From the IMG/VR virus record IMGVR_UViG_3300017917_002593, positions 22,212 through 86,211 of that record: a stretch of 64,000 bases of DNA; one strand, written 5' to 3'. The notes beneath the pieces are model-generated. The model did not search any database. It was not told the DNA's origin and worked only from the letters and a program-made list of their open reading frames with translations. Source of the DNA: a virus. The position numbers and the translations under genes are program-made. This document shows, piece after piece, positions 9,175-62,503 of this stretch (position 1 is its first letter; every line of letters begins with the position of its first letter).

Positions 9175-9186
9175 TAGGAACTCGGG

Positions 9187-9813: not shown

Positions 9814-9825
9814 GGAGACAAAGCA

Positions 9826-14090: not shown

Positions 14091-14099
14091 GGATTCAAA

Positions 14100-14417: not shown

Positions 14418-14420
14418 ATT

Positions 14421-42358: not shown

Positions 42359-42366
42359 TTTAAACG

Positions 42367-42374
42367 AATAAATA
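42367..42374 (+). promoter_or_regulatory. T4-type late promoter (AATAAATA) for the collagen fibre gene and probably the modification operon
   Basis: Motif upstream of ORF 42397. Confidence 0.5.
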
Positions 42375-42396
42375 TTGGAATAACAGTTGAATAACT

Positions 42397-48300: not shown

Positions 48301-49500
48301 CAAGGTCTATACAACCAAGCAACTGCTAACCACTGGTATAGCCCTGCAGGCAACTATTGGGATGCAGGCCAGCAAGGGTCCGGCGGTATTAGATTAAGAA
48401 ACGGCTATGCAGGTACTATTTTAGGATATTACTATGCTGATACTTCTCTAAACAGCGGATTGTTAAACCAAAACGGTAGTTGGAAAGTTCGTGTAGTCAG
48501 CGGCGAAACTGAAATTTACGATATATTATACTGGAACGACGCCAGAGGATATATTTTCTATGATCGTAACGATACTGCCTACTATGCAGACCCTGCAAGT
48601 ACCAGCAGGTTTAACGTTCTTGGAGTAGGTCTTCAGGCTAACAACGGCGGTAAATTAAGTGTTACCGGCGGACACGGCGATTCTACAATTAGATTAACTG
48701 CACAAGGTAACCAGTTAGGTTCTGGTGTTACATCCTCAATGCACTGGTGGGTAAGTGAACCAGGTATTACATGGAACGAAGGCGGCTTCGGTTACAACGT
48801 AACTAACGACGGTGGTGCACCAGGCGGCTTTAGTAGACCAAACACCAGTTATGGTCAGGCCTACATGCGTTTCAGTACTGCGGGACATTTGTATTTCTAT
48901 AATACAAACACCAGCGGAACTCGATTTAATGCTATGGACATGTATTCCAGCAATTACATATATGTCTATAACTATCTCGAAGCTGGCGGATCTCTAAGAG
49001 CACCGATCTTCTACGATAGTAACAACACCGGTTACTACATGGATGCGGCGGGCACTACAAACTTAAACGTTCTGCAAGCAGTATCTGCAAACATTACTGC
49101 CCAGTTTGCTCGTTGGGCGGACGTGGCAGAAAAGTACGAAGCCGATGCCGATTACGAACCCGGTACTGTATTAGTATTTGGAGGTGACAAGGAAGTTACT
49201 ATTTCAACAGAAACTCATTGCCCAGAAGTTGCAGGTGTTGTATCAACCAAACCAGCATTACTAATGAATAATGATTTGAAATCTACTTTTGTTGCCAATC
49301 TTGCGCTAACAGGTAGGGTTCCTTGTAAAGTATTAGGACCGGTAAAGAAGGGACAAATGATTGTTTCTTCTCATATACCTGGTGTAGGCAGAGCAATGGA
49401 TAAAACATTGTACGAACCTGGTTGCATTATTGGTAAATCTGTAGAAGCAATTGAGTCTGCCGAAATCAAAGTCATTGAAGTTGTTGTAGGAAGACTGTAA
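42397..49500 (+). CDS. Collagen-like long tail fibre with modular C-terminal part and putative intramolecular chaperone domain
   Basis: Gly-X-Y (mostly GAT) runs; six [12 protein letters not shown]-type linkers; C-terminal ADVAEKY...GTVLVFGG...VAGVVST...GRVPCKV domain. Confidence 0.8.
42553..43885 (+). repeat. Collagen-like Gly-X-Thr coding repeats (two blocks)
   Basis: 9-nt periodic ggtgcNacN repeats, interrupted by a globular insert at ~43305-43550. Confidence 0.9.
45838..48221 (+). repeat. Six dispersed ~30-nt direct repeats encoding [11 protein letters not shown]
   Basis: Copies start at ~45838 (degenerate), 46420, 47122, 47479, 47851, 48190. Confidence 0.85.
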
Positions 49501-49509
49501 AATAGTTGC

Positions 49510-49992
49510 ATGACTATTTTTAGTACACAAGATTTGGATGAAATAATCTTTCATCCAATCTCCTACGAACAACGCATGGTGTCTATAATCGACAACATTG
49601 GCCGACAAATATTCTTACATTCAGTTGGTGAATTATTTCAGTACCCCAGTCATACCATAAAAGTAGAAGGTCTGGAAAAATACAGTAAAGAAATTGAAAA
49701 GTTTATCTGTTTGTTGAAAGAAGACTATCAGCATAATGGACCAGTAACGTGTCACGCCTTTAAGTCTTTTAAAAATTCTGGAAGTTTCGGAGTTCATACT
49801 GACCCGGACAATGTATTTTTATTAGTAGTCGATGGAACAAAGCATATGACATACAATAATGTTACCTACGAACTAACGAAAGATCAAAGTCTGTTTATTC
49901 CTGCAAACAGTCCTCATTGTGCAATTAATAATGAAGATTCTCTTATGTTAAGTTTTGGGTTAGAATCGTATTTTTGTGAAAAATTAAAATGA
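49510..49992 (+). CDS. JmjC/cupin Fe(II)/2OG oxygenase (ROXA/YcfD-like)
   Basis: FGVHTD...GTK...LFIPANSPH: HxD...H triad with 2OG-binding Lys. Confidence 0.75.
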   Translation: MTIFSTQDLDEIIFHPISYEQRMVSIIDNIGRQIFLHSVGELFQYPSHTIKVEGLEKYSKEIEKFICLLKEDYQHNGPVTCHAFKSFKNSGSFGVHTDPDNVFLLVVDGTKHMTYNNVTYELTKDQSLFIPANSPHCAINNEDSLMLSFGLESYFCEKLK

Positions 49993-51062
49993 CTGCTAAC
50001 CTTATCTATCTTAAAACTACAGAGACCTGCAACTTAAACTGTCTACACTGTTTTACCAGCGGCAGTAAAGGTGCTAAAATCTATTGGGATCATCTAAAGG
50101 TCGTGAACTGGTTAGAAAGATTAAGCAAACATCTGCCTAAAGAAAATCATGTACACTTAGAATTTCATGGAGGAGAACCCTTCTTAGCTGAATTAGATTC
50201 TTTACAATATGTCTATGATAATTGCAAAGATCTCTGGGATAATCAAAGCTGGGGAGTTACTACAAATTTAACGTTTAAGCTCACCCAAGATATTATAGAT
50301 TTTATCATGGGGCCATTAAATGGTCGCGTTGGGACCAGTTGGGATCCAGATATTAGATTTTCAAGTCCTAAGCAATACGACCTATGGCGTAAAAATGTAG
50401 AAACCTTAACTAAGTTAGGTGTTGAAATTAAACTTTTTGTATCAGTTACTAAAGGTACTGTTGCAATGGAACCTATTGATCTATTAGAGTGGGTACGAGA
50501 TTTGGGTGTAAAAGAGTTAGCATTAGAACGATTAACTGTTAACGGCAGCGCCAGACAAAATTTACATATATTCCCATCAAACTTAGAACAAGACGCTTGG
50601 TTCTTAAAAATGCATCAACAGAGTAATGCTGCTGGTGCAAGAAATTGGTTCGAAAACGAATTTTTAGAAACAGTATATGCCAAGTTTGAGATGGGTATAA
50701 GTTCACAAGGAACATTTTGCAGAGATTGCGAAGAAAAATTATTCACGGTTAACGCCGATGGTTCAATTTCTGGATGTCCTAATAGTGCGCCAGAACAGGC
50801 TTTTGGGCATATCAACGACGATATAGAACAGTTACTTTACAGTCCAAAACGTATTGAAAATATTGTCTGTGAACGTAGTAGAGATCCCAGATGTTATCAA
50901 TGCCCGGTTTTTCAATATTGCGGCGGAGACTGTCATCAACTCGAGTGGCAAGACGATAAATGTGGAGCTCCAAAGAGTTTGATGCTTAATTTGGCAGGAA
51001 TAAATACCGATAGGACTAATAAGATTATTTTAATAAAGGAGTTAAAATGCCAAGTGGATTAA
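49989..51062 (+). CDS. Radical SAM/SPASM enzyme
   Basis: CNLNCLHC, FHGGEP, SPASM cysteines CRDC...GCPN...CYQCPVFQYCGGDC...C. Confidence 0.92.
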   Translation: MTANLIYLKTTETCNLNCLHCFTSGSKGAKIYWDHLKVVNWLERLSKHLPKENHVHLEFHGGEPFLAELDSLQYVYDNCKDLWDNQSWGVTTNLTFKLTQDIIDFIMGPLNGRVGTSWDPDIRFSSPKQYDLWRKNVETLTKLGVEIKLFVSVTKGTVAMEPIDLLEWVRDLGVKELALERLTVNGSARQNLHIFPSNLEQDAWFLKMHQQSNAAGARNWFENEFLETVYAKFEMGISSQGTFCRDCEEKLFTVNADGSISGCPNSAPEQAFGHINDDIEQLLYSPKRIENIVCERSRDPRCYQCPVFQYCGGDCHQLEWQDDKCGAPKSLMLNLAGINTDRTNKIILIKELKCQVD

Positions 51063-51625
51063 CGGACCCGATAGCCCGACAGAACATTGTAAATAGATTC
51101 GCAGACTATGTTAGAGGCGCGGCAAATTCTGGCATTTCTTGGGGAACTAACGCCTATCCATTTGGAGAATTTAGTGTACTTGCCTATGTATTCGGCGGAA
51201 CTACAGCTGGTAAAGCTATTGAAATTGACGGCAACAGTTTAGGTGCTGCCGGAACAGTTGCCAACGCTAACACAGTCTATAACGTTTTAATTGCCGAAAC
51301 TACCAGGTATACACGAATTAGACTAATGAGGGCTTTATTGTTTGTTGATGGCGGCGGCGGAAACACTGGCTCTCGTCCAACTCCGGGATATGTATATGAC
51401 GGAACCGCTGTTGCACATCTTAACAGCGGATATCAAGTAAACGTAAGTGCAGGAAGAGATAACGTTTTTTCCGGAAACACTATGACTCGAGTGGGTACAG
51501 CCAATATGTTTAACAACATGAGAGCTGCTTATAACAGTATAAGAGGCTCTGCCGTTACGTTCCAAGTAAACGTATGCCACGCATCTTGCCACAGTAGCTG
51601 TCATAGCTCTCGAGGCAGGAGATAA
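51047..51625 (+). CDS. Candidate substrate protein with C-terminal (CHxS)3-RGRR motif
   Basis: Ends VCHASCHSSCHSSRGRR; Gly/Asn/Ala-rich body like the virion proteins; embedded among maturase genes. Confidence 0.7.
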   Translation: MPSGLTDPIARQNIVNRFADYVRGAANSGISWGTNAYPFGEFSVLAYVFGGTTAGKAIEIDGNSLGAAGTVANANTVYNVLIAETTRYTRIRLMRALLFVDGGGGNTGSRPTPGYVYDGTAVAHLNSGYQVNVSAGRDNVFSGNTMTRVGTANMFNNMRAAYNSIRGSAVTFQVNVCHASCHSSCHSSRGRR

Positions 51626-51634
51626 GGATTTAAG

Positions 51635-52366
51635 ATGAGTACTATCATTGACACAGTTGCTCCTATTGCATTAGAAGATTTGAAAAAATACTTTATTAAC
51701 AAAGATATTGTATTTGTAATCGACTATGAAAAGAGTAGCCTAACTGGCGCCAAATTGTTGACCTATTTAGGAAATTTAGATATCCCTTGCGATATAAAAT
51801 TAAGTTTTACAGAACCTTCACATTTTGACTTACTTAAAGAATATTTTGAAACTGGCAACCTATTAAAAATACCCAGTTTAGAACAGGCAGCAATTCTTTG
51901 TCTGTTAGAAAAAAAAGAATTAGTTATCAATACCCCTTTTGAAAATTTTATTAAAGAGAATGAGACAACATTAAACGAATGGGAATCGAGATTAGACAGT
52001 TTAACGCTGTTCAATATGCAAACTGTAGATGTTGACGAGTTTAAAAACTTTGTAGATCAGTTCCCGGAAGATTTATCAGACTCGTCGAAGTATGTAAATT
52101 TTGTTAACTTAGCACGCCATGAAGATTTTTTCTTATATTATTCAAAGATCGATAATGCTAAATTAAAAAATTATAAAACCCTGTTTAACGATTACTGCTA
52201 TCGGGGAAAAAACTTATACAGTTTCTGGGCAGTTGACACCAACCCATTATTCTTATTAACATGGTCGATCGCTTCTGGAAATTTAGATACTGAAGAGTAC
52301 GTAAATTCAGTTAAAGAAGACTACAATGTAGTAACTAAGGACTCAGCAAATGTTTCACCTGTTTAA
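51635..52366 (+). CDS. Hypothetical protein in the radical SAM operon
   Basis: 243 aa ORF, SD AAGGA, overlaps the next gene. Confidence 0.7.
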   Translation: MSTIIDTVAPIALEDLKKYFINKDIVFVIDYEKSSLTGAKLLTYLGNLDIPCDIKLSFTEPSHFDLLKEYFETGNLLKIPSLEQAAILCLLEKKELVINTPFENFIKENETTLNEWESRLDSLTLFNMQTVDVDEFKNFVDQFPEDLSDSSKYVNFVNLARHEDFFLYYSKIDNAKLKNYKTLFNDYCYRGKNLYSFWAVDTNPLFLLTWSIASGNLDTEEYVNSVKEDYNVVTKDSANVSPV

Positions 52367-53567
52367 AAAAGTATATTTAGATTTTGACGATAAAATTAAT
52401 ATGAGCTATGACAGGATAGTTTGTTCAAATGCCTATGGCGGAATTATAGATTCTATCGACTTATCTAAAGTATTTTATGGGGAACTAATTGCATCAAGTA
52501 AGAACATTGGTGACTTAATCGGCCCCGAAAAGAAATTTAATACCTTCTTAGAAATGTTGGAGCTATTAAACAGCAGAGTTGATCAATATAACAGCCCTGT
52601 TTACGTCTACTGTGATAAAGAATCGTATTATAAATTTGCAGTCAAGTGGATGAAAATTATTCTTCCAAGATGTACAGCACCCGCAGCTTGGAAATTTTTC
52701 AAGTCTCATATTTTTAAAGAAAAGAATTTTGTTAATTCCAGAATGTCGGCCTCTGAAAGATTTATCAATGATGTAGACTCGTGGTATTTGCTCGAAGAAC
52801 AATTTAACACATACTGGACAAATGAAGTTGTTACTCAAGCTGATAGAAACACATATTCTCAATTTATAAACACAGTAAAGAATAATCTCAAAGTTGAATT
52901 TTTGCTTGCATCTTACCTTTACAATAAAAGTCTCGGTGATGTTTTAGCTAAGGCAATTACTCCGTTAGTTAAAAAAGATTTAGAAAAATTTATATACGAG
53001 CATAAAGAAGTTATCCTTGTACATTTTCAACGTCCGTTTTTTCAAACCCTATTAGGAGTTCAAAACGGCCCATACACCTTTGACAATTTTTATTCAATGG
53101 TAGATGATCCTGCTCCATTAGTACAGTTGATGTTTAAGCCAGAAATATGGGGTGAAACTCGAAGCTCTATGTTTGCTCCGACTTCCTCTGGCTCAATTAA
53201 TTTGTCAGCATTTACTGATGAAGATATTACTAACCTAAAAAGTTATAGCGCAATTACAGGGCAAATTTGGAAAGACGAAGTTTGGTATACCAGTTTAAGA
53301 ACAACTCCGTCGGCGCAATCATACTTAGGATCTGAAGTTGATAAATTTGATTTTATTAAATTTTTTAGAAACAAAGATTACCTAACAGTTGAAGAATTAG
53401 ATTCTATTTTAGACTATGAGATCTACCATCAGTATCATTCTGCAGGATCGTTTTATGCGTTTGACTTAAGATCAGTTAACACATATTTTGTAGACTTCTT
53501 ATTAATGAACTACAATAATGCAGAACTACTTGAACCTTTTATTATTGAAATCAACGAAAGCCAATAA
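52350..53567 (+). CDS. Hypothetical protein in the radical SAM operon
   Basis: 405 aa ORF coupled to its neighbours; PVYVYCD weakly recalls a phosphatase-type strand-Cys loop. Confidence 0.7.
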   Translation: MFHLFKKVYLDFDDKINMSYDRIVCSNAYGGIIDSIDLSKVFYGELIASSKNIGDLIGPEKKFNTFLEMLELLNSRVDQYNSPVYVYCDKESYYKFAVKWMKIILPRCTAPAAWKFFKSHIFKEKNFVNSRMSASERFINDVDSWYLLEEQFNTYWTNEVVTQADRNTYSQFINTVKNNLKVEFLLASYLYNKSLGDVLAKAITPLVKKDLEKFIYEHKEVILVHFQRPFFQTLLGVQNGPYTFDNFYSMVDDPAPLVQLMFKPEIWGETRSSMFAPTSSGSINLSAFTDEDITNLKSYSAITGQIWKDEVWYTSLRTTPSAQSYLGSEVDKFDFIKFFRNKDYLTVEELDSILDYEIYHQYHSAGSFYAFDLRSVNTYFVDFLLMNYNNAELLEPFIIEINESQ

Positions 53568-53569
53568 CA

Positions 53570-54595
53570 ATGTCAATATACGAAGTCATTGATTCTAAAG
53601 TTGTTGATCATGGAGAAGTTATTGTTTGCTTATTTGAACACTGTAATTTACAATGTTCATTTTGTCCACAAGATCATAATTCTTTAATCGGTGTCTCTCG
53701 AGAAAAGATTTTAGGAAAGATTCCCTCAATAGTTAAATGGATCAACGAAAACACCAGATCAAAGTGTTTCAAGATTCATATAATGGGAGGCGAGCTGTTT
53801 CAAGATTGTTGGATAAATGATGGCTTCATTGAAATTTATCAAGAGCTATTGTATTCTATTCGTGCTCAAGTATCAGAAGATAAAGATTTAATTTTCAACT
53901 TTGTCACAAATTTAGTGTTTGAAAACACAGATAAAGTATTAGATTTTCTAAAAAAGAATAATCTAAAAATCTCAGTGTCTTATGATTCCAAAGGACGTTT
54001 TAATAAAAGTCAACTTGAAACATTTAAACGCAATATAGAAATATTTAGAGACAACATTGAAATGATCTCTCTTGTAATGACTCTTCAAAATATGGAAGCA
54101 GTTATAGCAGGCGACAAGTACTTTGATTATTTGTATAATAATTTTCCATGTGATTGGGATTCTTTTCTTCCCGCAGTACAGGCATCTGAGATCATGATGC
54201 CTAAAGAATCAGATCTACTTAAATTTTATAAGCATTTAGTTGATCGATATCCCGACTGTACAAATATTTCATATTTTACAACAACTGAACATTCTAAAAA
54301 AATGACATGCACTCGCGGTAGTAATTTTACAATAATGCATGATGACACAATTCCTCAAGGCTGTTCGGGCAGTATTCTTATGAAAGGGAATACTACAAAA
54401 AATACAGCGTCGGATCAAATTGTGATAAATTTTTTTAAAACATACAATTGCTTTGAATGTGAGTATTTTAAAAAATGCCCATTCACATGTTTCATAAAAA
54501 ACGACTATAATAAACTCAAAAAAGATGTTGGTGAGTGTGTTTTTAAATTAACTTTTGATCATGTAAATGCAAGAAAACAAGATACACTTTTATAA
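53570..54595 (+). CDS. Radical SAM enzyme with SPASM/Twitch-like C-terminus
   Basis: CNLQCSFC, IMGGELF, CTRG...GCSG, CFECEYFKKCPFTC. Confidence 0.88.
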   Translation: MSIYEVIDSKVVDHGEVIVCLFEHCNLQCSFCPQDHNSLIGVSREKILGKIPSIVKWINENTRSKCFKIHIMGGELFQDCWINDGFIEIYQELLYSIRAQVSEDKDLIFNFVTNLVFENTDKVLDFLKKNNLKISVSYDSKGRFNKSQLETFKRNIEIFRDNIEMISLVMTLQNMEAVIAGDKYFDYLYNNFPCDWDSFLPAVQASEIMMPKESDLLKFYKHLVDRYPDCTNISYFTTTEHSKKMTCTRGSNFTIMHDDTIPQGCSGSILMKGNTTKNTASDQIVINFFKTYNCFECEYFKKCPFTCFIKNDYNKLKKDVGECVFKLTFDHVNARKQDTLL

Positions 54596-56297
54596 ACCAG
54601 TAAGAGTCGTAAAAGAACCCTTAACAATTGCATTTGTAAATCCTCCACATGCAGATTGGTCTCTTATAAACACGCTGACTTACCATTTATGCCATAGTCA
54701 TTATAGTCGATATGGCAAGTATAAAGACATGGTTAAATGGCTACCATCTCCTTACAGATGGAATAAGTATTCTTCTTGTCAAGAAGTCTATGAAGAAATC
54801 AAAGAAGCAGACATAATCATGTTTAGTTCATATGTCTGGAATTATCCTATATGCGATGAAATTGCTAAGATAGCCAAAGCAAATAATAAGATAACACTAT
54901 TAGGCGGCCCGCATATTGGAACTAACGACAACGACTTTTTAAAATCAAGAAATTTTTACGACTTTATTTGTAAGCCTACTAAACCGGGAGAAGTATTTCT
55001 TGAAGACTGCATTGATTCTTGGTTTGAAAATGACAAACATATACAAGCTGAAAACATAAGCTGGGAATTAAATTCATCAAAGACTCGAGATTATTCTATA
55101 TCAGATTTAACGTATTCTGTATACGAAGATCATGCTGAGTATTTGAAAGAAATAGTTACCTATGCAAAAATTAATAAAATGGAGCCTTTTGTTGTTCTTG
55201 AAACTACAAGAGGATGTCCTTATAGTTGTGTATTCTGCGAATGGGGCGGCGGCATTGGCACCAAAATACAAAAGAAACCTTTAGACATAGTAAAACGAGA
55301 TATCCTTGCACTTTTAAATATAGGATATCGAGATGCAATGTCTGCAGATGCAAATTTTGGTATTTTTTTAGAGAGAGATTTAGAGATTTTAAGATTTGCA
55401 TGGGAAAATGGATTTAGCATAAGTGACATGTCGTCAATGAAATCGAAAGATCTAACTAAAAGGAAAAAATTAGTCGACGAATGGTTTAATATTGTAAGTA
55501 GGCCTGTTACTAAAACTAATAGTAGCGCAGACAACATGTGGGAAAATACCAAATATATTTCCATCCTACCAACTGTCTCGATACAAAGTATTTCGAACGA
55601 AGCAATGAAGATTGCAAAAAGAGTTGACTTGTCGTATGAGGACAAGTTAGAGTTAAGTAGATATATAGGAGAAAAAATTCGAAGCGCAGGCTATCCTGTT
55701 CCTGCACTTGAATTAATATTAGCAATGCCCGGCTCGACTTTAGATGATTTTTATAAAGAAATGGAAATTATTTGGAACTTTAGGATATGGGGATTGCGTC
55801 GACACGATTATATGTTCTTGCCCGACTCCGAACTAAATTCAGAAGAATATAAAAATCAATACAAGATAGAAACAGTAGAAGTTTATTCAGATTCTGCTGA
55901 TGAAGATGGGTCTGACAATTTTTATAGTTTGTATAAAAACAAAAAATCTTATTTTAAGACTATAAGGTCTTGTTATTCTTTTACCAAAGAAGAGATGCTT
56001 GAAATGTTTTTTATGAACTGTGCCGCAACATATCTGCTTAGGAATGTTTATCAGGAATACGAACCTTATCTACTACCTGGAGATTTTTGTAAACTGTGTT
56101 ACAAAATTATAAAAACATTTGACTCCTACAAAAAAATTTATGATGCAATTGAAGATATATTCGATCCAACAACTGCTCCTAAATCAATAAAGAAGATAGA
56201 AAACAGGGATAGGGTTGAAGTAGTTGAGGAACTTATCAACAATAATATTTTGTTACTTAAAAATGGGATAGCTAATCATGTACTCGTCGATCAATAA
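54567..56297 (+). CDS. Cobalamin-binding (class B type) radical SAM enzyme
   Basis: B12-binding-like DIIMFSSYVWN...LLGGPH; ETTRGCPYSCVFCEWG; DANFG. Confidence 0.85.
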   Translation: MQENKIHFYKPVRVVKEPLTIAFVNPPHADWSLINTLTYHLCHSHYSRYGKYKDMVKWLPSPYRWNKYSSCQEVYEEIKEADIIMFSSYVWNYPICDEIAKIAKANNKITLLGGPHIGTNDNDFLKSRNFYDFICKPTKPGEVFLEDCIDSWFENDKHIQAENISWELNSSKTRDYSISDLTYSVYEDHAEYLKEIVTYAKINKMEPFVVLETTRGCPYSCVFCEWGGGIGTKIQKKPLDIVKRDILALLNIGYRDAMSADANFGIFLERDLEILRFAWENGFSISDMSSMKSKDLTKRKKLVDEWFNIVSRPVTKTNSSADNMWENTKYISILPTVSIQSISNEAMKIAKRVDLSYEDKLELSRYIGEKIRSAGYPVPALELILAMPGSTLDDFYKEMEIIWNFRIWGLRRHDYMFLPDSELNSEEYKNQYKIETVEVYSDSADEDGSDNFYSLYKNKKSYFKTIRSCYSFTKEEMLEMFFMNCAATYLLRNVYQEYEPYLLPGDFCKLCYKIIKTFDSYKKIYDAIEDIFDPTTAPKSIKKIENRDRVEVVEELINNNILLLKNGIANHVLVDQ

Positions 56298-56805
56298 TAT
56301 ATATGAAAAAGGATTTGTAAAACTTTATGAACCTGAAGGCGTAGGTATGATACAAATCGATAACTTTGTTTTATTAAACACCGAAGAGCGCCTGCGTGAT
56401 AACATTAAGCATGATGTATCAAAAGATCTCTCTGAACGATTATCTTTATTTGGCCAGTATTTAAAAACTAAGTATATTGACCCAGAATGGCCGGACGCAG
56501 TATATAATAAATTTGTTGTTTGGGAAGGTGTTGACAAAGACAATCAGGGATGGCATACTGATATGTTTGAAGGCTACGACATTTTCTTTTTATATTATCT
56601 GGATACAATGTCTCCAGAAACAGGCGGCTCAATAAGTTTTAAATGGCAAGGCGATGGAGATAATTCAGTTGAATTTTACCCTAAAGCTGGAGATCTGTTT
56701 ATGGTTAATAATATGCGAGGTTTTTGGCACAAGGCACAAAGCTGTAGTATTAAGAGACGAGTTGTAAGTTTTGATTTTAATGTAGGATTAACAGATCATG
56801 AATGA
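56278..56805 (+). CDS. Fe(II)/2OG oxygenase
   Basis: WHTD...FLYYL...GG.I...P.AGDL...WHKA...RRV. Confidence 0.8.
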   Translation: MYSSINNIYEKGFVKLYEPEGVGMIQIDNFVLLNTEERLRDNIKHDVSKDLSERLSLFGQYLKTKYIDPEWPDAVYNKFVVWEGVDKDNQGWHTDMFEGYDIFFLYYLDTMSPETGGSISFKWQGDGDNSVEFYPKAGDLFMVNNMRGFWHKAQSCSIKRRVVSFDFNVGLTDHE

Positions 56806-57103
56806 TGTTAAAAAAATGTTTGAATTAAAAAACGAATTGTGCAAAGAAAGAGACTTATGTGCAGAATTGTGCAATATATGGCTTACACGTATGTATCAGA
56901 ATCAAGGTAACAAAGAAGAATACAACAAATACTTAAAGTTGATACAAGATACAGAACCCTATACTCGTCAACTAAAAGCTAAAATATCTGAATTGAACAA
57001 AAAAATCTGTGAAGTAGAAGGGGTCGACAGTATCACTGATACAGAGTACACACATGAATGCGTGAGCAAATACGGTTTTGATTTTCCTAATACTGACAAA
57101 TAA
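56798..57103 (+). CDS. Small helical Cys-containing hypothetical protein
   Basis: 101 aa, coupled at both ends; CKERDLCAELC. Confidence 0.65.
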   Translation: MNDVKKMFELKNELCKERDLCAELCNIWLTRMYQNQGNKEEYNKYLKLIQDTEPYTRQLKAKISELNKKICEVEGVDSITDTEYTHECVSKYGFDFPNTDK

Positions 57104-58170
57104 TGGACTTAATTATTAAACCTACAGAAAGGTGCAATTTTAAATGTACTTTCTGTTCAAGTACACATATTACAGAGGACAAGTCTGCTGAGCTCGATCA
57201 CCAATACATTTTCGATTTCTTAAAAAGGTTTCCCGAGACCAATACAATAATTGTTAACGGTGGTGATCCTTTAATGATGACTCCCGAATACTATTGGAAG
57301 ATAATAGATTACTTAGATAAAATAGGATCTTCTGCTTCAATATCTTTTACAACTAACCTATGGCCGTTTTATAAAAATCCAGAAAAATGGAAAGATTTGT
57401 TTAACCATCCAAGGATGGGAATTACAACAAGTTTTCAATATGGCGGTGGCAGACTAAAGGGAGACTTATCTGAATTTAGTGAAGAAGATTTTTGGAAAAC
57501 ATCTGATGCAATGTTAGAACATTGTGGATATCGACCTGATTTTATTTCTGTAATTACAGAAGAGAATGCTCACTTGGCAATTAAGAATGTTGAGCTCGCT
57601 AAACAGATGAATGTTGAATGTAAATTAAACTATGCGTTCTCGAGCGGACCCCCGATAAAGTTTAAAAATATTGTAATGGGGCAACAAGGAAAGCCGTACA
57701 TGCTTGCCGATATCTACGAAATTTATGTAGAAATATGGAAAAGAGGATTAACTCCTTGGGAATATAATACCAAGCAAATGGTCAAAAGACTAAAAGGCTC
57801 GGGCACAACTTGCCCTCAAAATAGAGATTGCGATTCGGGAATTAGAAATTTACAGCCGTCAGGGGATTATTATTCTTGCGGAGCTTTTGGAGATGATAGA
57901 GAATATGCAATAGACTTTAAAAAAGAAATGGAAGGGGAGAAGATATACCCACTAAAATTTCAACCAGAATTGCAGAGTTTGAAACAGAGTTGTTATACAT
58001 GTCCAATGTTTCAGATTTGCAATGGCTGTAAAAAGACTATTAAAGATTTAAAAAGCTACGGATTAGTTGAATCACATTGTATGAAAATGAAGAAGCTGGC
58101 ACCTGATATTATTGCGGCAAATGGTATGACTTTGGAAGTAACAGAGTACGTATCAGAGGTTCAAGATTGA
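57103..58170 (+). CDS. Radical SAM/SPASM enzyme
   Basis: IIKPTERCNFKCTFC, NGGDP, CPQNRDC...YSCG...CYTCPMFQICNGC...C. Confidence 0.92.
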   Translation: MDLIIKPTERCNFKCTFCSSTHITEDKSAELDHQYIFDFLKRFPETNTIIVNGGDPLMMTPEYYWKIIDYLDKIGSSASISFTTNLWPFYKNPEKWKDLFNHPRMGITTSFQYGGGRLKGDLSEFSEEDFWKTSDAMLEHCGYRPDFISVITEENAHLAIKNVELAKQMNVECKLNYAFSSGPPIKFKNIVMGQQGKPYMLADIYEIYVEIWKRGLTPWEYNTKQMVKRLKGSGTTCPQNRDCDSGIRNLQPSGDYYSCGAFGDDREYAIDFKKEMEGEKIYPLKFQPELQSLKQSCYTCPMFQICNGCKKTIKDLKSYGLVESHCMKMKKLAPDIIAANGMTLEVTEYVSEVQD

Positions 58171-58204
58171 CCAGCCAATCTAAATATTGTATAGTTAAGT
58201 AATA

Positions 58205-59119
58205 ATGGTACTGTCGATTAATCCCTGGTATTACTGTAATTTTAGATGCAGTTTTTGTTATCTAACCGAAGAACAGTTGTCTGATAAAAAATTATTGCCC
58301 CTTGATAAGTTGGAGCAACGATTAATCGAAATTACTGCTGTTTCAAAAATAGATATGGTAGATCTTTACGGAGGAGAGGTAGGGTTACTTCCAGTATCTT
58401 ATGTAAAGTCTCTAAAAGAATTACTTCACGCATACGGGATTTACGATATTAATGTGATCACTAATTTGTCCATGATAAATGAGATTACTACTGACCCAGA
58501 TTTCTTTATTTCTGTAAGTTATGATTTTAGTGCAAGAGAAAAGCATGAGTTGGTCTTTAGGAATATGGCGCAACTAACTACTCCGTTTTCAGTGTTAATG
58601 TTAGCTTCTCCTAAACTGTTAGAATATGATGTTAACGAAATAGTAGAAACTTTAAATCTATTACCTAATCTACAATCAGTTGAGATAAAACCCTATAGTC
58701 AAAATCAAGCTAATCAACATAATTTGCAGTACACTCAGTTTGAAGAGTTTGTAAAATCTTTTTTAGAGAATAAAAATAAAAACTTTACTTTTGTAAACGA
58801 AAAATTAATACAGCGTGTATTAGACAAGACGAGAAATAGTTTCAGCGATGATCATGTTTACATCACACCGTCTGGAAATTATGGCGTTTTAGAATTTGAT
58901 TTAAACGATCGAGAATATTTTCAAGAGTATGAAACTTTAGACGAATATTTTGAATGGTGTGAACTTGAAAAAGTAAGAGTACAAAAAAATAAATTTTGTT
59001 CAAGCTGTGAATATTTTGGAAATTGTCTATCGGAACATTTACGAGAAGTTAAATCTTTAGATAATAGTTGTAACGGATTTAAAAAGTTAATCAATTGGTA
59101 TGCAAGACTGGAAAATTAG
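58205..59119 (+). CDS. Radical SAM enzyme with reduced C-terminal Cys cluster
   Basis: CNFRCSFC, LYGGE, CSSCEYFGNC...CNG. Confidence 0.88.
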   Translation: MVLSINPWYYCNFRCSFCYLTEEQLSDKKLLPLDKLEQRLIEITAVSKIDMVDLYGGEVGLLPVSYVKSLKELLHAYGIYDINVITNLSMINEITTDPDFFISVSYDFSAREKHELVFRNMAQLTTPFSVLMLASPKLLEYDVNEIVETLNLLPNLQSVEIKPYSQNQANQHNLQYTQFEEFVKSFLENKNKNFTFVNEKLIQRVLDKTRNSFSDDHVYITPSGNYGVLEFDLNDREYFQEYETLDEYFEWCELEKVRVQKNKFCSSCEYFGNCLSEHLREVKSLDNSCNGFKKLINWYARLEN

Positions 59120-59504
59120 ACAAGAAATATATCATCGAATGACAAGGGCTCACGAAGATGACCTCAGTCAGTTTGATATTGAGCTAACAGATAATGTTGT
59201 AGATGATGCTGTTCGATATTTTAAAGATCGAAATATAGGTTGGGTGTATCCTTCTAAATCGTACATGGTAGGTATTTGTTATTCAAAGTGGTTATCTAAA
59301 GAATTTGGTGAATTACCTGAATACTATCTTGACGATGCCGATTTACTCTACGGCAATGATCCCTATTTTGTAGAATATAGTAAAGACCCAGAAACATATC
59401 ATAAGATTCTTAATCAAATTGGCGGTTGGGACTTTGATCAAACAGCTGGAATGGTACCGGATGTCTATGAATATTTTAAAAAAGAGTTTTTATTAAATGA
59501 ATAA
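59100..59504 (+). CDS. Hypothetical protein in the radical SAM operon
   Basis: 134 aa aromatic/acidic ORF overlapping both neighbours. Confidence 0.7.
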   Translation: MQDWKIRQEIYHRMTRAHEDDLSQFDIELTDNVVDDAVRYFKDRNIGWVYPSKSYMVGICYSKWLSKEFGELPEYYLDDADLLYGNDPYFVEYSKDPETYHKILNQIGGWDFDQTAGMVPDVYEYFKKEFLLNE

Positions 59505-60066
59505 AGGTTTTAATAATTTATGGCCCACACCTGTCTACATAGACAAGATATCTAACGAAGAATTAGTGAATCAAGTATGCGAAGAAATATTGATGAACGT
59601 TGATTTGTCAAAGCCTTTTACTGAATTCCAGGCATATGATATTTTAAGAGACGGTGCAGAAGTGTTTCAAACATTTAGAGATCAGGTAGTGATGCCCTCA
59701 TTTGAAACGTATTTAAAAAACTGGAATTTAAGTTTTAAAGATTTTACAAATTATCGTATTCGGTCTTGGTTAACTGGCGCACATGCAGGGTATAATATTC
59801 CTGTTCATAATCATAGCGGTGCAACTCTAAGTGCAATTTTTTATCTGTTGATAGATGATAATTTACAAGGAGGCGATTTAATATTCCTTGACCCGCGGTC
59901 AAATGCTAATCGAGGATACGAGGATCAATTTAAACCGCTTTTTGAAAACAAGCAGTATTCTCCTAAGTCAGGAGAAGTTGTAGTGTTTCCGGGATTTTTG
60001 TACCATCAAACAATTCCATTTTCTGGATCAATTCGATTAGCTATGCCAGTTGATCTTTTTTTCTAA
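59497..60066 (+). CDS. Putative Fe(II)/2OG oxygenase (phage HxH-type)
   Basis: LWPTP, SW...HNHSG..LSAIFY, GDLIFLDPR, VVFPGFLYH..R. Confidence 0.8.
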   Translation: MNKGFNNLWPTPVYIDKISNEELVNQVCEEILMNVDLSKPFTEFQAYDILRDGAEVFQTFRDQVVMPSFETYLKNWNLSFKDFTNYRIRSWLTGAHAGYNIPVHNHSGATLSAIFYLLIDDNLQGGDLIFLDPRSNANRGYEDQFKPLFENKQYSPKSGEVVVFPGFLYHQTIPFSGSIRLAMPVDLFF

Positions 60067-60112: not shown

Positions 60113-60505
60113 ATGCCAATTACCTACACCTGGGAAGTAACATCGATTAAAACAACAACTGAAGGCAGCAATGATAATGCAGTCATTCAAACCTATTGGA
60201 AAAAAACAGGAACTGACGAAAACGGCAAAACTGGTACTTTTGACGGAGCAACTCCTTTAACTTCTCTAAATGTACCCGAGGGCGAATTTATTCCCTTTGA
60301 GCAATTAACTGAAGAAATTGTTTTAAGTTGGATCCAGGGACAAATTGATGAATTTTACGAAGAGCATATTAATCGACAGATTAAGAAAAAAATAGATGCA
60401 TTCTATGTAACTCAGCCCGGTCTTCCTTGGGATCCTACAAAAGGATTGCCTCCTAATCCTAATCCGGGTCCTACTCAAGTATCAGATTACAAACCACCCG
60501 TATAA
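60113..60505 (+). CDS. Tail fibre-associated small protein, paralogue 1
   Basis: TYTW...V...W..TGTD..G...FIPFEQLT...V..W pattern shared with 60760 and 61709. Confidence 0.65.
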   Translation: MPITYTWEVTSIKTTTEGSNDNAVIQTYWKKTGTDENGKTGTFDGATPLTSLNVPEGEFIPFEQLTEEIVLSWIQGQIDEFYEEHINRQIKKKIDAFYVTQPGLPWDPTKGLPPNPNPGPTQVSDYKPPV

Positions 60506-60540
60506 CTCTATTATAAATATCTCATCTTAACGGAGTTTCT

Positions 60541-60732
60541 ATGAACACACAACCAAAAATTACACTAACTTTAGACATGAACGAACTAAACACTATTATG
60601 GCAGGACTTGGTAAACTGCCATACGAACAGTGTTTTGCAGTAGTTGACACTATTCGTACTCAGGCATCCACTCAGTTGCAAGAACAACAAGCCGCCGGCG
60701 GCCAGGGTGCAATGGGTCCTGGTAGAGAATAA
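60541..60732 (+). CDS. Small phage protein
   Basis: 63 aa, late promoter at 60512, SD GGAG; L.MNELNTIM.GLGKLPY. Confidence 0.7.
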   Translation: MNTQPKITLTLDMNELNTIMAGLGKLPYEQCFAVVDTIRTQASTQLQEQQAAGGQGAMGPGRE

Positions 60733-60759
60733 ATAATAGTTTAGTAAGCGGAGATTACA

Positions 60760-61140
60760 ATGGCAACTACATATACCTGGGACATCGAAAATGTTGATTT
60801 GATCGACAACCACGAAGGCAACGAAAACGTTGTTTTTAGGGTCGTTTGGAAATGCACAGCAACTTCCGATTCTGGCAAAACTAAAGATCAAGTAGGTGTG
60901 GTAGAGCTAAATCCAAATGTAGCAGCTGAAGATTTTATCCCTGTTGATCAAGTTACAAAGCAGGACATTATTAATTGGGTTAAAAACACCGTTGCAGTTA
61001 GTGTTATCGAACGTGATTTAAATCCGTCCGTGACTTCAATTACATTTATGAACACTACCGGTACTAATATTACTGTAGCTGAACAACTTGCAGCCGCTAA
61101 CAATAAACAAGATACAACACCAGACCCTAATAATCCATGA
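60760..61140 (+). CDS. Tail fibre-associated small protein, paralogue 2
   Basis: TYTWDIE...NVVFRVVW...FIPVDQVT...WV. Confidence 0.65.
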   Translation: MATTYTWDIENVDLIDNHEGNENVVFRVVWKCTATSDSGKTKDQVGVVELNPNVAAEDFIPVDQVTKQDIINWVKNTVAVSVIERDLNPSVTSITFMNTTGTNITVAEQLAAANNKQDTTPDPNNP

Positions 61141-61700
61141 TAGGCGAGTGGGCGTATATTAAAAGTTATTTTACGCCAGAACAATGTGATTTAATTATAC
61201 AAGAGGCCTTAAAGTTGCCAGATTACGAAGCAACTTTAGGGCCTTCCAGTGAAAGAGTCGACAATCAGTGGCGTAAAAGTACCATCCGTGCAATCACACG
61301 AAATTCTACTTGGAATTATCTGTTCAGTGAGTTAGATAAAGTAGTTGCACAAATCAATAACGAATGGTTTCAGGTTGATTACAACTATCTTCCTGCAATA
61401 CAGTTTGCAACCTACGACGAAGAAACACAAGGTTTTTACAAAAGACATCAAGATGTCTTTTTAGCACCGTTAAAAACTCATAGAAAATTAAGTGTTACAG
61501 TTCAGCTAAGTGATCCTGATACTTACGAAGGCGGTAATCTTCAATTCTTAGATGTAGGACATTACCCTAAACAAGAAAACATAAGAGCCAGAGGCACAGT
61601 CTGCGTATTTCCAAGCATTATTTTTCACGAAGTTACTCCTGTAACTAAAGGAGTTAGGCATAGTTTAGCAGGCTGGTATGAAGGCCCTCACTGGAGATAA
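61137..61700 (+). CDS. PKHD/prolyl-4-hydroxylase-like Fe(II)/2OG oxygenase
   Basis: Y..HQD...RKLS.TVQLSDP..YEGG...FPS..FHEV.PVTKG.R.SL..W. Confidence 0.88.
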   Translation: MIGEWAYIKSYFTPEQCDLIIQEALKLPDYEATLGPSSERVDNQWRKSTIRAITRNSTWNYLFSELDKVVAQINNEWFQVDYNYLPAIQFATYDEETQGFYKRHQDVFLAPLKTHRKLSVTVQLSDPDTYEGGNLQFLDVGHYPKQENIRARGTVCVFPSIIFHEVTPVTKGVRHSLAGWYEGPHWR

Positions 61701-61708
61701 ATAATAAT

Positions 61709-62053
61709 ATGAGCACAAACACTTTTCCTGGAATTACATTTACTTGGGAATTCCCTCGATTCGCTGCACATTCTACTCTAAACGAAATGCAGAATGTAGT
61801 TTATAATGTTGAATACATTTTATCTGCGACTGACGGAGAAGGACACGGTAGTCAATATTTTAGTTCAGTTGGCATCGGCGAGCCTAACCCAGAAACTTTT
61901 AAGAAGTTTAATCTTATTACACAAAATGTCGTGGAAGAATGGGTAGAATCTGCACTGGGCGAAGAGCAGCTACACGATATTAAGACAATCTTAGTTAATC
62001 AAATTGAGCAACAAAAACAGCCCGAAGTGTTGCAACTTAGCAAGCCTTGGTAA
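61709..62053 (+). CDS. Tail fibre-associated small protein, paralogue 3
   Basis: TFTW...NVVYNVEY..SATDG...F..IT...VEEWV. Confidence 0.65.
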   Translation: MSTNTFPGITFTWEFPRFAAHSTLNEMQNVVYNVEYILSATDGEGHGSQYFSSVGIGEPNPETFKKFNLITQNVVEEWVESALGEEQLHDIKTILVNQIEQQKQPEVLQLSKPW

Positions 62054-62503
62054 TTAAAAAATAATATCGAGCAACAGCTCTATTTTAGTTTTGTTTGTCT
62101 TATTAGATAAACTTCTTTTTACACCTTGATGTAATGGCTTAGGCCATTGATTTAATGCACACCAAGCGTATCCAACATGTTCATCGTTTAACACAGGAAT
62201 AAATTCTTTGTCTACAATTAAAATGTAGGTATTAAAGAAAAATCTCTGATCTTCGCTGGTAAACAATTCAAGCGGAATAGTTTTCTTGATCTTGGGACTT
62301 ATACCTATTTCTTCTTTAATTTCTCTTTCTAAAGCAGCATAAGCAGTAATGTCAGTAGGTTCTTTTTTACCCCCAACGATCCCCCAAGTGCCCGCAGTTT
62401 TGCCGTGATTTCTTAACAAGAACAAAAATCTCTTGGTATCTTTAGCAAAGAATAATCCGCCACTGCAAACAATATTTTCTTGGTTCATAAAACTAAACGC
62501 CAT
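62054..62503 (-). CDS. Nudix hydrolase
   Basis: Nudix box GGKKE......AALEREIKEEIG; LNDEH..YAW; start may be ATG at 62488. Confidence 0.9.
   Translation of the reverse strand: MAFSFMNQENIVCSGGLFFAKDTKRFLFLLRNHGKTAGTWGIVGGKKEPTDITAYAALEREIKEEIGISPKIKKTIPLELFTSEDQRFFFNTYILIVDKEFIPVLNDEHVGYAWCALNQWPKPLHQGVKRSLSNKTNKTKIELLLDIIF

Follow-up and report, generated by a model that had tools for sequence, protein, structure and literature searches.

Among the closest described systems, the HXS antiphage system (HxsA/B/C/D) matures the HxsA protein through HxsB and HxsC at an S-H-x-S-S unit, with a mass shift of +8 Da (PMC13128918; Nat Commun 2026), and the triceptide maturases HaaB, HtkB, YhhB, FxsB, GrrM and AmcB link an aromatic residue—including His, through C2—to the C-beta two positions further on (PMC11499958). 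The megaplasmid literature mentions another radical SAM cluster only as being of unclear function. Here, we analyzed a window of 64,000 nucleotides from a jumbo phage (IMG/VR record IMGVR_UViG_3300017917_002593), which carries a radical SAM cassette directly behind its tail-fibre gene; our literature search found no publication on this cassette. The features of the locus, in positions of the window, are as follows:

42397–49500, + strand: fibre gene, giant collagen-like fibre protein (2367 aa)
49510–49992, + strand: g1, cupin/JmjC-like Fe(II) oxygenase (160 aa)
49989–51062, + strand: g2, radical SAM/SPASM protein (357 aa) with a CNLNCLHC motif
51047–51625, + strand: g3, folded protein (192 aa) with a (C-H-x-S)3-RGRR C-terminus, candidate substrate and virion protein
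51575–51622, + strand: g3 tail, CHASCHSSCHSSRGRR, the last 16 codons of g3
51635–52366, + strand: g4, protein of no known family (243 aa)
52350–53567, + strand: g5, protein with no family above cut-off (405 aa)
53570–54595, + strand: g6, radical SAM/SPASM protein (341 aa) with a CNLQCSFC motif
54567–56297, + strand: g7, radical SAM protein with a B12-binding domain (576 aa), accessory
56278–56805, + strand: g8, Fe(II)/2OG oxygenase (175 aa), accessory
56798–57103, + strand: g9, protein of no significant family (101 aa), accessory
57103–58170, + strand: g10, radical SAM/SPASM protein (355 aa), the most conserved cassette gene
58205–59119, + strand: g11, radical SAM protein (304 aa) with one C-terminal auxiliary cluster and a CNFRCSFC motif
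59100–59504, + strand: g12, protein of no family (134 aa)
59497–60066, + strand: g13, Fe(II)/2OG oxygenase (189 aa)

The anatomy of the cassette could be read directly from the ORF coordinates, which bear out a preliminary description of 13 packed, mostly overlapping genes between 49510 and 60066. All lie on the + strand; the fibre ORF stops at 49500, leaving a 9-nt gap before g1, and nine of the 12 gene junctions are overlaps of 1–29 nt (16 nt between the g2 stop and the g3 start), the remaining three being gaps of 2, 9 and 34 nt. The inventory given in that description also stood, with five radical SAM enzymes (by our analysis, three of SPASM type, one with a single auxiliary cluster and one of B12 type), three Fe(II) oxygenases, four proteins without known family or fold, and g3 with its Cys/His/Ser repeat tail. 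In line with the same description, searches with the 13 proteins gave no match to a peptidase, transporter or immunity family, and both proteases and exporters were absent from all loci examined.

The CxxxCxxC motif was located in g2, g6, g7, g10 and g11 (genes starting at 49989, 53570, 54567, 57103 and 58205, respectively), all of which gave Radical_SAM/Fer4_12 matches. Family alignments revealed invariant auxiliary cysteines in the four proteins for which SPASM/Twitch-like clusters had been proposed: eight in g2, seven in g6 with classic SPASM spacing (residues 247, 265, 294, 297, 303, 307 and 323), nine in g10 and four C-terminal ones in g11 (residues 265, 268, 274 and 289). A SPASM domain was found in g2 (TIGR04085, E 4e-9), whose top NCBIfam match, to PapB, is full-length (E 3e-16) but at 59.5 bits far short of the cut-off of 340; both g2 and g6 matched phrog_1802 (E 8e-68 and 4e-31, respectively). 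The g10 profile likewise produced a full-length alignment with the anaerobic sulfatase-maturating enzyme 4k37 (E 1.9e-5), and the Radical_SAM match of g11 (30.7 bits) was over the cut-off. The predicted cobalamin-binding enzyme is g7, which carries a B12-binding N-domain and no further invariant cysteine. B12-binding matches it with E 1e-5 and Radical_SAM with E 3e-5, both sub-cut-off, and the match to the KedN5 subfamily (E 2e-20) scores 72.6 bits where the cut-off is 700; g7 is probably a class B methyltransferase. The best weak family matches of the cassette enzymes are to PapB, DynA, anSME, QhpD and HxsB/HxsC, with all matches to characterised families falling far under those families' cut-offs. 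Judged by sequence features, the radical SAM enzymes of the cassette are members of the peptide- or protein-modifying SPASM class.

In phages, radical SAM and 2OG enzymes frequently act on nucleotides, and the cassette could accordingly be a set of auxiliary metabolic or nucleic-acid-modifying genes (for DNA hypermodification, cofactor or lipid chemistry) lying merely beside structural genes—a reading also favored by a DHFR gene inside the RSL2 cluster and by the GC content of g4–g13 (0.32–0.34), unlike that of the fibre genes. However, family-level matches to QueE, viperin, MoaA or similar enzymes were missing (all 16–34 bits), the SPASM architecture is typical for peptide substrates, and in phages, bacteria and plasmids alike the enzymes are strictly linked to the tail protein. 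We regard this explanation as highly improbable.

The metal triads of the three oxygenases are intact. In g1 (Cupin_2, E 4.3e-10; JmjC_2, E 1.4e-6; phrog_8014, E 7e-26), H96-x-D98...H136 is conserved across 44 homologues; g8, with a sub-cut-off 2OG-FeII_Oxy_3 match (E 5e-5), conserves H93-x-D95...H151 and R160; and g13, with a 2OG-FeII_Oxy_5 match (E 3e-12) of 47 bits against the Pfam cut-off of 27, conserves H104, H106, H170 and R180. The four proteins described as unknown (g4, g5, g9 and g12) remained below every curated Pfam/NCBIfam cut-off, with no matches at all for g4 and g12 and weak sub-threshold ones for g5 and g9. The g4 protein matches phrog_20767 (E 5e-55) and was modeled with a pLDDT of 86.5 (AF2), and the model found no fold match in the PDB (Foldseek E > 0.5, VIA Z ≤ 4.7). 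Neither an RRE nor a leader-binding domain turned up in the cassette.

The g3 protein, for which 648 homologues were found, ends in three C-H-x-S units followed by RGRR, and all of its cysteines lie within these units. Its AF2 model has an overall pLDDT of 84, dropping to <50 in the tail, which is predicted to be disordered; no fold match for the model was found in the PDB, nor does g3 have a peptidoglycan-binding domain or an evident signal peptide. Among 187 distinct tail proteins, the 16-residue tail forms the exact C-terminus in 186, whatever the body, and R-[GS]-R-R follows the units in 186; 168 have no other cysteine, and the serine at unit position 4 is conserved at 76–98%. The invariance of Cys and His within this set is circular because the motif itself was partly used to select it—a circularity that does not apply to the 120 homologues retrieved by whole-protein similarity, in which the tail Cys and His are also invariant. 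In relatives, the g3 body is exchanged for other folded bodies or joined to a Gly_rich_2 domain, and the fused proteins (461–541 aa) retain the tail. Moreover, RSL2 ORF068 (186 aa) and Atu_ph07 gp170 (296 aa) have the identical tail ending and lie between g2 and g4 homologues, with no match to g3 by tblastn.

Co-occurrence of the CHxS-tail gene with the enzyme set, the test put forward in the preliminary description, was near-perfect in 40 viral contigs with sufficient flank around g3. All 40 contained g2, g4 and g10, followed by g5 (39 loci, 21–64% identity), g11 and g13 (38 each), g1 (37), g6 (36), g12 (33, and also in bacterial cassettes), g8 (28), g7 (22) and g9 (detected by BLAST in 7); methylation would thus be optional, since the B12 methylase occurs in only 22 of these loci. 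The g4 gene adjoins g3 or sits within 1–2 genes of it in nearly all loci, bacteria included, and g10 reaches 80–87% identity in loci where g3 shows 55–77%. The cassette was also found in the cultured jumbo phages RSL2/RSF1, FLC6/8, SURPRISE13, Atu_ph07, Phosso and DT01 (g10 identity in cultured jumbo phages, 58–63%), as well as on Bdellovibrionota and Flavobacteriaceae chromosomes. Scanning 185,579 prokaryote genomes for the tail pattern gave 27 matches; cassette genes accompany 21 of these, with an enrichment in Bdellovibrionota and for a chromosomal setting. With the same genes found around the tail in 57 viral contigs and again in cellular genomes, the arrangement is far beyond chance, and the link to the tail outlasts changes of lineage and of g3 body. 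Hence the RiPP-like modification unit initially proposed holds up as one conserved cluster, and the enzyme set is widespread yet uncharacterised.

The placement of the cassette in a fibre/baseplate module was likewise upheld, and the cassette sits behind a fibre gene in 36 of the 40 loci. The fibre of the window has N-terminal collagen repeats (Pfam Collagen, E 4.5e-34) and a C-terminal domain of ~130 aa (aa 2234–2367), conserved in the upstream gene of these 36 loci, which resembles an intramolecular chaperone; its homologues in two loci (L004 and L044) give weak matches to the Peptidase_G2 IMC domain (23–25 bits vs a cut-off of 25). These collagen repeats, together with the assignment of g8 to a prolyl-hydroxylase-type 2OG family (PF13640), suit the idea that the enzymes act on another virion protein, e.g., by hydroxylating the collagen-like repeats of the upstream fibre, while the Cys/His tail stays unmodified and simply serves a trimeric, fibre-associated protein as a metal (Zn or Fe) clamp; its three Cys and three His, set at fixed intervals, are typical metal ligands. 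Yet the C-terminal domain is the only fibre part common to related loci, conservation does not extend to the fibre body, and most upstream genes lack collagen repeats; bacterial and RSL2 cassettes pair the tail protein and enzymes without that fibre type. Nor would a simple metal site account for why four SPASM-type enzymes are strictly linked to the tail in every lineage, why the Ser positions are invariant or why the tail ends in R-G-R-R; we consider this combined alternative unlikely. Because g3 is constant across phages, predatory bacteria and plasmids whereas the upstream fibre varies, the fibre is unsupported as the substrate.

The earlier proposal of a structural-protein substrate finds support in a different sense, in that the tail-bearing Atu_ph07 homologue of the candidate substrate is a virion protein, with nothing indicating the fibre itself. 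Published ESI-MS/MS of Atu_ph07 virions detected gp170 (8 peptides, 35% coverage), and its listed mass of 31.89 kDa equals the mass that we computed for the tail protein. The enzymes gp164, gp165, gp168 and gp171, as well as gp169 and gp172, are absent from the virion protein list. On one gel, and for a distant homologue of g3, gp170 peaks in the top band (band 1)—as the only protein of <40 kDa with >2 peptides to do so—whereas proteins of similar size peak in bands 7–8; a smear, or a common fibre-type trimer that resists heat, could also produce this migration. The recovery of gp170 from purified virions also bears on whether the locus encodes a true RiPP or peptide-derived cofactor, in which the tail, once modified, would be cleaved from g3 to release a small bioactive peptide or redox cofactor (cf. 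PQQ and mycofactocin), the body acting only as a large leader. Such pathways are typified by a C-terminal core and several SPASM enzymes, with an optional B12 methylase and oxygenases, but no locus encodes a protease or exporter, and the g3 body is a conserved domain with a confidently predicted fold that gives way to other folded bodies or a Gly_rich_2 fusion in relatives. A released product thus seems quite improbable to us.

We therefore favor, with moderate confidence, the interpretation of the cassette as a putative protein-maturation unit for the g3 tail, with g3 then residing in the particle. The flexible 16-residue tail, (Cys-His-x-Ser)3-Arg-Gly-Arg-Arg, would resemble a RiPP core peptide that is never cleaved off. 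During infection, the four core radical SAM enzymes (g2, g6, g10 and g11) would abstract hydrogen atoms from tail residues, introducing covalent changes on Cys, His and Ser, the candidate chemistries being thioether links, His-to-C-beta cyclophane links or a sulfatase-maturase-like oxidation of Cys/Ser. Both the late-infection timing and the chemistry named in the preliminary description (cross-linking, methylation and hydroxylation) are inferred. Hydroxyl and methyl groups could be added by g1, g8 and g13, plus g7 where present, and g4, g5 and g12 may serve as substrate-presenting or scaffold partners that replace the missing RRE domain. Finished g3 would be incorporated near the fibre/baseplate, where the rebuilt tail might provide an SDS- and heat-stable oligomer, a covalent joint or a rigid basic tip. 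If true, g3 would be the first virion protein known to be modified by radical SAM enzymes.

Comparison with known systems places the cassette near several of them. The repeated H-x-S of the phage tail fits the three-residue cyclophane motif of triceptides, although matches to YhhB, AmcB, FxsB and GrrM reach only 15–29 bits against cut-offs of 310–445, triceptide substrates are short leader-core peptides without invariant Cys, and none is known from a virus particle. Like anSME (PDB 4K37) and QhpD/QhpC, in which SPASM enzymes modify Cys/Ser in a folded protein client, the cassette may act on a folded protein, and we take the last tail unit, C-H-S-S-R, to resemble the sulfatase C-x-P-S-R site. 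However, TIGR03942 scores 40–43 bits against a cut-off of 349, unit position 3 is neither Pro nor Ala, and the phage cassette contains no sulfatase or amine dehydrogenase client. Ranthipeptide/SCIFF substrates (PapB) share Cys spaced four to five residues apart, but PapB joins Cys to Asp or Glu, both missing from the phage tail, and acts on short peptides that are secreted. Beside type IV pilus genes on Pseudomonas IncP-2/pQBR megaplasmids lies a distant counterpart of the cassette: in p12969-DIM, a 124-aa protein with CH-x-A repeats and an SRGWR end is found among six rSAM/SPASM genes. The one that directly follows the pilus genes shares 25% identity with g10 across 86% of the query. This version differs in the signal peptide of its substrate, its pilus-operon location and its other accessory genes. 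Finally, HXS uses two radical SAM enzymes and a small partner to mature a whole protein, rather than a short peptide, at His-x-Ser repeats, which are basic, and the site mapped there, S-H-R-S-S, has its counterpart in the C-H-x-S-C unit of the phage tail (PMC13128918). The two nevertheless differ in sequence (g2, 34 bits vs the HxsB cut-off of 370; g10, 30 bits vs the HxsC cut-off of 268), in the lack of an HxsD match in the phage cassette and of an HxsA-type peptidoglycan-binding domain and evident signal peptide in g3, and in the Cys, invariant in the phage tail and absent in HXS. The phage cassette has four to five rSAM enzymes plus oxygenases, and whereas HXS is a host defence, the cassette is phage-borne and structural.

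The thirteen genes g1–g13 that directly follow the fibre gene probably form a hitherto undescribed protein-maturation cassette, which rebuilds the C-terminal Cys-His-x-Ser tail of g3, the candidate substrate; g3 would then take its place in the virion.

Features of the window
42397-49500: fibre protein of 2367 aa, last of five giants, with collagen triple-helix repeats
49510-60066, + strand: cassette genes g1–g13
51047-51625, + strand: g3, 192 aa, ending in the 16-residue tail
62485-63915, - strand: gp15-type tail-sheath stabiliser, ~31-33% identical to the PA5oct, Atu_ph07 and Phosso versions

The cassette is filled by 13 ORFs, all on the + strand, with a gap of 9 nt between the fibre stop and the first ORF and overlaps at nine of the 12 gene junctions. 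ORF, motif and family checks showed every element of the preliminary description of this block to be correct. Five proteins (g2, g6, g7, g10 and g11) combine a CxxxCxxC motif with Radical_SAM/Fer4_12 matches, and the CX3CX2C signature near the N-terminus is invariant in the respective family alignments. A SPASM domain was taken to require 7-8 C-terminal Cys (two auxiliary 4Fe-4S clusters) and a Twitch domain ~3-4 Cys (one cluster). In alignments of 28-54 homologues per protein, we counted eight invariant extra Cys in g2, nine in g10, seven at textbook SPASM spacing in g6 and four in g11—sufficient for one auxiliary cluster—while g7 has none and carries a putative B12-binding N-terminal domain instead. 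Both marks of a radical SAM protein with a SPASM/Twitch auxiliary domain, i.e., CX3CX2C and the auxiliary Cys, were found. The SPASM model TIGR04085 matched g2 above cut-off (E 4e-9) and g10 below it (E 6e-5). In g7, a candidate class B (cobalamin-dependent) radical SAM methyltransferase, the putative B12-binding domain precedes the radical SAM domain, both scoring under the Pfam cut-offs (25.9 versus 32.1 bits and 24.8 versus 29.5 bits); its match to the KedN5 subfamily had an E-value of 2e-20, yet reached 72.6 bits against a cut-off of 700.

The metal ligands HxD/H...H are kept in all three Fe(II) oxygenases (44-46 homologues). The cupin/JmjC-like g1 conserves H96/D98/H136, with a Pfam match above cut-off; g8 (2OG-FeII_Oxy_3) conserves H93/D95/H151 and the 2OG-binding R160; and g13 (2OG-FeII_Oxy_5), also above the Pfam cut-off, conserves H104/H106/H170 and the 2OG-binding R180. 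No curated family matched g4, g5, g9 or g12 above cut-off, and ESM Atlas returned only sub-threshold matches, on poor models, for g4 and g5. A confident model was obtained for g4 (pLDDT 86.5), resembling no known fold (Foldseek E > 0.5; VIA-align Z at most 4.7). Its gene adjoins or lies near g3 in nearly every locus, and we infer that g4 might be a substrate-presenting partner.

A collection of 5.8 billion proteins contained 648 relatives of g3, of ~190 aa; the best 120 of these were 58-83% identical to it, and the C-terminus was the same in all. Scanning IMG/VR with the g3 family alignment led to 57 loci, in which ORFs were called and compared with the proteins of the window; counts refer to the 40 loci with at least 2.5 kb upstream and at least 9.5 kb downstream of g3.

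Cassette genes present in the 40 counted loci
g2, g4, g10: 40/40
g5: 39/40
g11, g13: 38/40
g1: 37/40
g6: 36/40
g12: 33/40
g8: 28/40
g7 (putative B12 enzyme): 22/40
g9: 7/40

The proposed co-occurrence of the enzyme set with the CHxS-tail gene was therefore borne out, with g2, g4 and g10 in every counted locus. It follows from the counts that the core comprises cupin, radical SAM, tail protein, g4, g5, three further radical SAM enzymes, g12 and 2OG oxygenase; g7, g8 and g9 are optional. The most conserved cassette gene is g10, with 80-87% identity where g3 shows 55-77%. Against 50,697 phage records, neither megablast with the complete cluster nor tblastn with g3 or g7 was informative, and single-sequence g7 patterns scanned over viral contigs recovered no relatives. 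In 36/40 loci, the similarity of the gene just upstream to the window's fibre is confined to the final ~130 residues (aa 2234-2367), and this C-terminal domain weakly matches a Peptidase_G2 intramolecular-chaperone model in two homologues. The suggestion that the fibre itself is the substrate found no support, the link to the fibre being positional.

Two deviating arrangements were also observed. In one sub-lineage (L052-L054 and L057, ~9043-10411; 8318-9686 in L053), the g3 position is occupied by two genes, for a 308-aa g3-like protein without the tail and then a 140-aa protein with it, which would reflect either a duplication or a split. In a distant variant (L058 9836-10665; L068, L073 and L086), one or two tandem tail proteins of 125-140 aa lie directly 3' of a fibre protein of 1700-2850 aa, and the next gene encodes a CxxxCxxC protein that BLAST did not connect with the enzymes of the window; L058, for which a longer flank is available, then has four more CxxxCxxC genes.

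The C-terminus of g3 reads CHASCHSSCHSSRGRR, and all of its Cys lie within this end. Among 187 distinct tail-bearing proteins (71-296 aa), the motif was the exact C-terminus in 186, was followed by R-[GS]-R-R only, and in 168 accounted for every Cys of the protein; the invariance of Cys and His is partly circular in this set, and not circular for homologues found by whole-protein similarity. The tail is also kept in longer forms (461-541 aa), one group of which has a Gly_rich_2 domain fused to the g3 body. AlphaFold2, run on a 70-sequence alignment, modelled the body confidently as alpha/beta (pLDDT 84) and left the tail disordered. No solved structure was similar to this model (Foldseek PDB E of at least 0.96; VIA-align Z at most 3.8), and its matches in BFVD were uncharacterised phage proteins only, gp170 of Atu_ph07 among them. 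Less probably, such a run of Cys and His may serve, unmodified, as a metal clamp, with the enzymes acting elsewhere.

Evidence on the fate of the tail protein comes from Atu_ph07: Supplementary Table S5 of the paper on this phage lists gp170 (31.89 kDa) among the virion proteins identified by ESI-MS/MS. It is represented by eight unique peptides (35% coverage) and occurs in gel bands 1-9, with its maximum in band 1 (PMC6102473). For the tail protein, translation of the RefSeq record gives a computed mass of 31.89 kDa and, since this equals the listed value, the identity of gp170 as the tail protein is secure. On the same gel, the maximum for 30-35 kDa proteins is in bands 7-8, whereas the other proteins of band 1 have masses of 75-139 kDa; of the proteins below 40 kDa identified by more than two peptides, gp170 alone has its maximum in band 1, and the samples had been treated with SDS and heated at 95 °C (PMC6102473). 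Coming from one gel and a distant homologue, this peak is a hint, consistent with an oligomer or adduct that is covalent or extremely stable. Also on the virion list is gp176, the upstream protein that shares the C-terminal domain of the fibre, whereas the other cassette products gp164, 165, 168, 169, 171 and 172 are absent from it (Table S5). Detection in purified particles pertains to the homologue gp170 only, the phage of the window being uncultured. A less probable explanation is that the tail is released as a peptide or cofactor. The absence of peptidase, exporter and immunity genes, already noted in the preliminary description, was confirmed for the families of all 13 proteins, and the BLAST maps of the viral loci contained no recurring extra gene fit for a peptidase or exporter role.

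With g10 and g4 as tblastn queries, the 50,697 phage records yielded 15 from cultured jumbo phages that carry the cassette.

Cultured phages with the cassette
Ralstonia phages: RSL2, RSF1, the FLC4-series FLC4-4C, -5C and -11C, RsoM3USA
Burkholderia phages: FLC6, FLC8, SURPRISE13
Other phages: Agrobacterium Atu_ph07, Sinorhizobium Phosso, Pseudomonas pPa_SNUABM_DT01

In RSL2 and Atu_ph07, the protein encoded between the g2 and g4 homologues has no BLAST similarity to the g3 body, yet still carries the tail; the respective C-termini are VCHSSCHTSCHGSRGRR and FCHSSCHASCHNSRSRR. The RSL2 cassette also includes, between two radical SAM genes, an annotated dihydrofolate reductase gene (L060 12941-13477). 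Published accounts of the cultured phages treat the cassette genes as accessory proteins of unknown function only, and full-text literature searches yielded no description of the phage cassette.

The source record of the window is an 86-kb IMG/VR viral contig with an estimated completeness of 24%, and is therefore a fragment of a jumbo myophage genome. The five giant proteins are encoded in the 35 kb ahead of the cassette. GC content is 0.41-0.49 in the fibre gene (42000-50000) and falls to 0.32-0.34 over g4-g13 (52000-60000), with the bins containing g1-g3 remaining at ~0.38-0.41; judging from GC, the enzyme block may have a history other than that of the structural genes. Directly 3' of the cassette lie genes for three paralogous DUF7936 proteins (60113-62053; starts at 60113, 60760 and 61709) and a fourth, PKHD/YbiX-like Fe(II)/2OG oxygenase (61137-61700; PF13640, E 2e-15). 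Related loci have proteins of 110-113 aa in the same position, with weak LtfC-like beta-sandwich or BppU_N matches, which suggests fibre or baseplate accessory proteins. A NUDIX hydrolase gene (62054-62503, - strand) adjoins the gp15-like stabiliser gene, a pairing also annotated at the matches in PA5oct-like jumbo phages.

Beyond phages, the back-translated tail pattern was scanned over 185,579 prokaryote species (one genome each), giving 27 matches, of which 21 had cassette genes. The other six were rejected, since they lack cassette genes and look like chance.

Chance matches to the tail pattern
Pseudoclavibacter, Streptomyces, Thauera, an Actinomycetota MAG, an Acidobacteriaceae MAG and one unclassified MAG

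The real matches are concentrated in Bdellovibrionota MAGs (Halobacteriovoraceae, Bacteriovoracaceae and Pseudobdellovibrionaceae), and a single Flavobacteriaceae MAG is also among them. Several of the matching contigs from marine MAGs are probably mis-binned phage. The Halobacteriovoraceae cassette (L088) lies on a 1.29-Mb contig amid housekeeping genes (serine dehydratase, YchF and penicillin-binding protein). About 2 kb away, with one gene between, is a gene for a 413-aa protein (13765-15006, - strand) with a Peptidase_S74 intramolecular-chaperone domain, a hallmark of fibres. The Pseudobdellovibrio cassette is located within a few kb of pilMNOPQ and a prepilin peptidase gene (L090 5284-11664, - strand). 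These settings hint at a link with the prey-attachment appendages of predatory bacteria. Moreover, a distant version of the cassette, traced through g10-like genes, is present on 136 plasmids, of which 130 come from Pseudomonas. In p12969-DIM, six radical SAM/SPASM genes flank a gene for a 124-aa protein with a signal peptide (L094 12477-12851), ending in YCHNACHGACHGACHGSRGWR, i.e., CH-x-A repeats and SRGWR, and type IV pilus genes stand directly ahead. Plasmid papers name this megaplasmid radical SAM cluster and leave its role unclear.

Fibre- or pilus-type neighbours recur in phages, predatory bacteria and plasmids. Read jointly, and more tentatively, these settings might reflect a common appendage-finishing system, in which radical SAM enzymes would remodel an invariant (Cys-His-x-Ser)n-basic tail to give a knot that is polycyclic or bears an aldehyde. 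Through this knot, a small adaptor protein would be covalently stapled into assemblies that resist SDS and sit on extracellular filaments, namely the fibres of jumbo phages, the fibre-like adhesins of Bdellovibrionota predators and the type IV pili encoded on plasmids. Secreted peptides and a few enzyme clients are the known targets of radical SAM/SPASM chemistry, and we know of no description of it on a virus structural protein. If the appendage-finishing proposal were true, the cassette would provide the first case of a virus particle bearing a radical-SAM-made post-translational modification, and RiPP chemistry would gain a new class that acts on a protein rather than a peptide. The cassette spans unrelated jumbo-phage lineages, predatory bacteria and Pseudomonas megaplasmids that spread drug resistance. 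Some members belong to phages already in culture whose hosts are tractable (Agrobacterium C58 for Atu_ph07; Ralstonia and Burkholderia for RSL2/RSF1 and FLC6/SURPRISE13), which opens the hypothesis to a direct test by mass spectrometry. A positive outcome would yield a new protein cross-link or cofactor, assign functions to four or more orphan families of proteins (g3, g4, g5 and g12) and show how phages can harden or functionalise the apparatus used for adsorption.

All matches of the cassette enzymes to characterised families fall far under the family cut-offs. The best match of g2 is PapB (59.5 bits versus a cut-off of 340), with DynA, anSME, QhpD and HxsB also matched, and g10 matches anSME, DynA and HxsC. 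Profile searches of g10 and g2 against the PDB gave weak anSME, MoaA and ChlB matches, single-sequence searches being empty or trivial; a g10 profile of 30 homologues aligns full-length, albeit weakly (E 1.9e-5), to the anaerobic sulfatase-maturating enzyme 4K37. The radical SAM enzyme class is clear from these sequences, namely SPASM-type, predicted to act on peptide or protein side chains; g11 has weak viperin and MoaA matches. A much less probable alternative is that the enzymes carry out nucleotide or metabolite chemistry. The short leader precursor of a canonical RiPP cluster is missing, the candidate substrate g3 being a folded protein of 192 aa. None of the 13 proteins gave a PqqD/RRE match, and the radical SAM proteins start at the cluster motif. 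Membership of the anaerobic sulfatase maturases was rejected (TIGR03942, 40-43 bits versus a cut-off of 349). The last tail unit, C-H-S-S-R, has what we take to be a loose resemblance to the sulfatase C-x-P-S-R site; compared with the client motif C/S-x-P/A-x-R, it lacks the Pro or Ala. The triceptide synthases (YhhB/AmcB/FxsB/GrrM) were likewise rejected, with 15-29 bits against cut-offs of 310-445. H-x-S, a candidate aromatic-X-X cyclophane motif, occurs three times in the tail, and three-residue cyclophanes containing His provide a precedent (PMC11499958). Finally, the HXS defence system offers a further precedent: its protein HxsA is matured by HxsB/HxsC together with HxsD, and an S-H-R-S-S unit is the site of the +8 Da change (PMC13128918). 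Membership of HxsABCD was rejected: g2 scored 33.7 bits against the HxsB cut-off of 370 (TIGR03978) and g10 30.2 bits against the HxsC cut-off of 267.9 (TIGR03977), and no HxsD or HxsA model matched g3, g4, g5, g9 or g12. The feature common to the HXS system and the cassette is the H-x-S spacing only.
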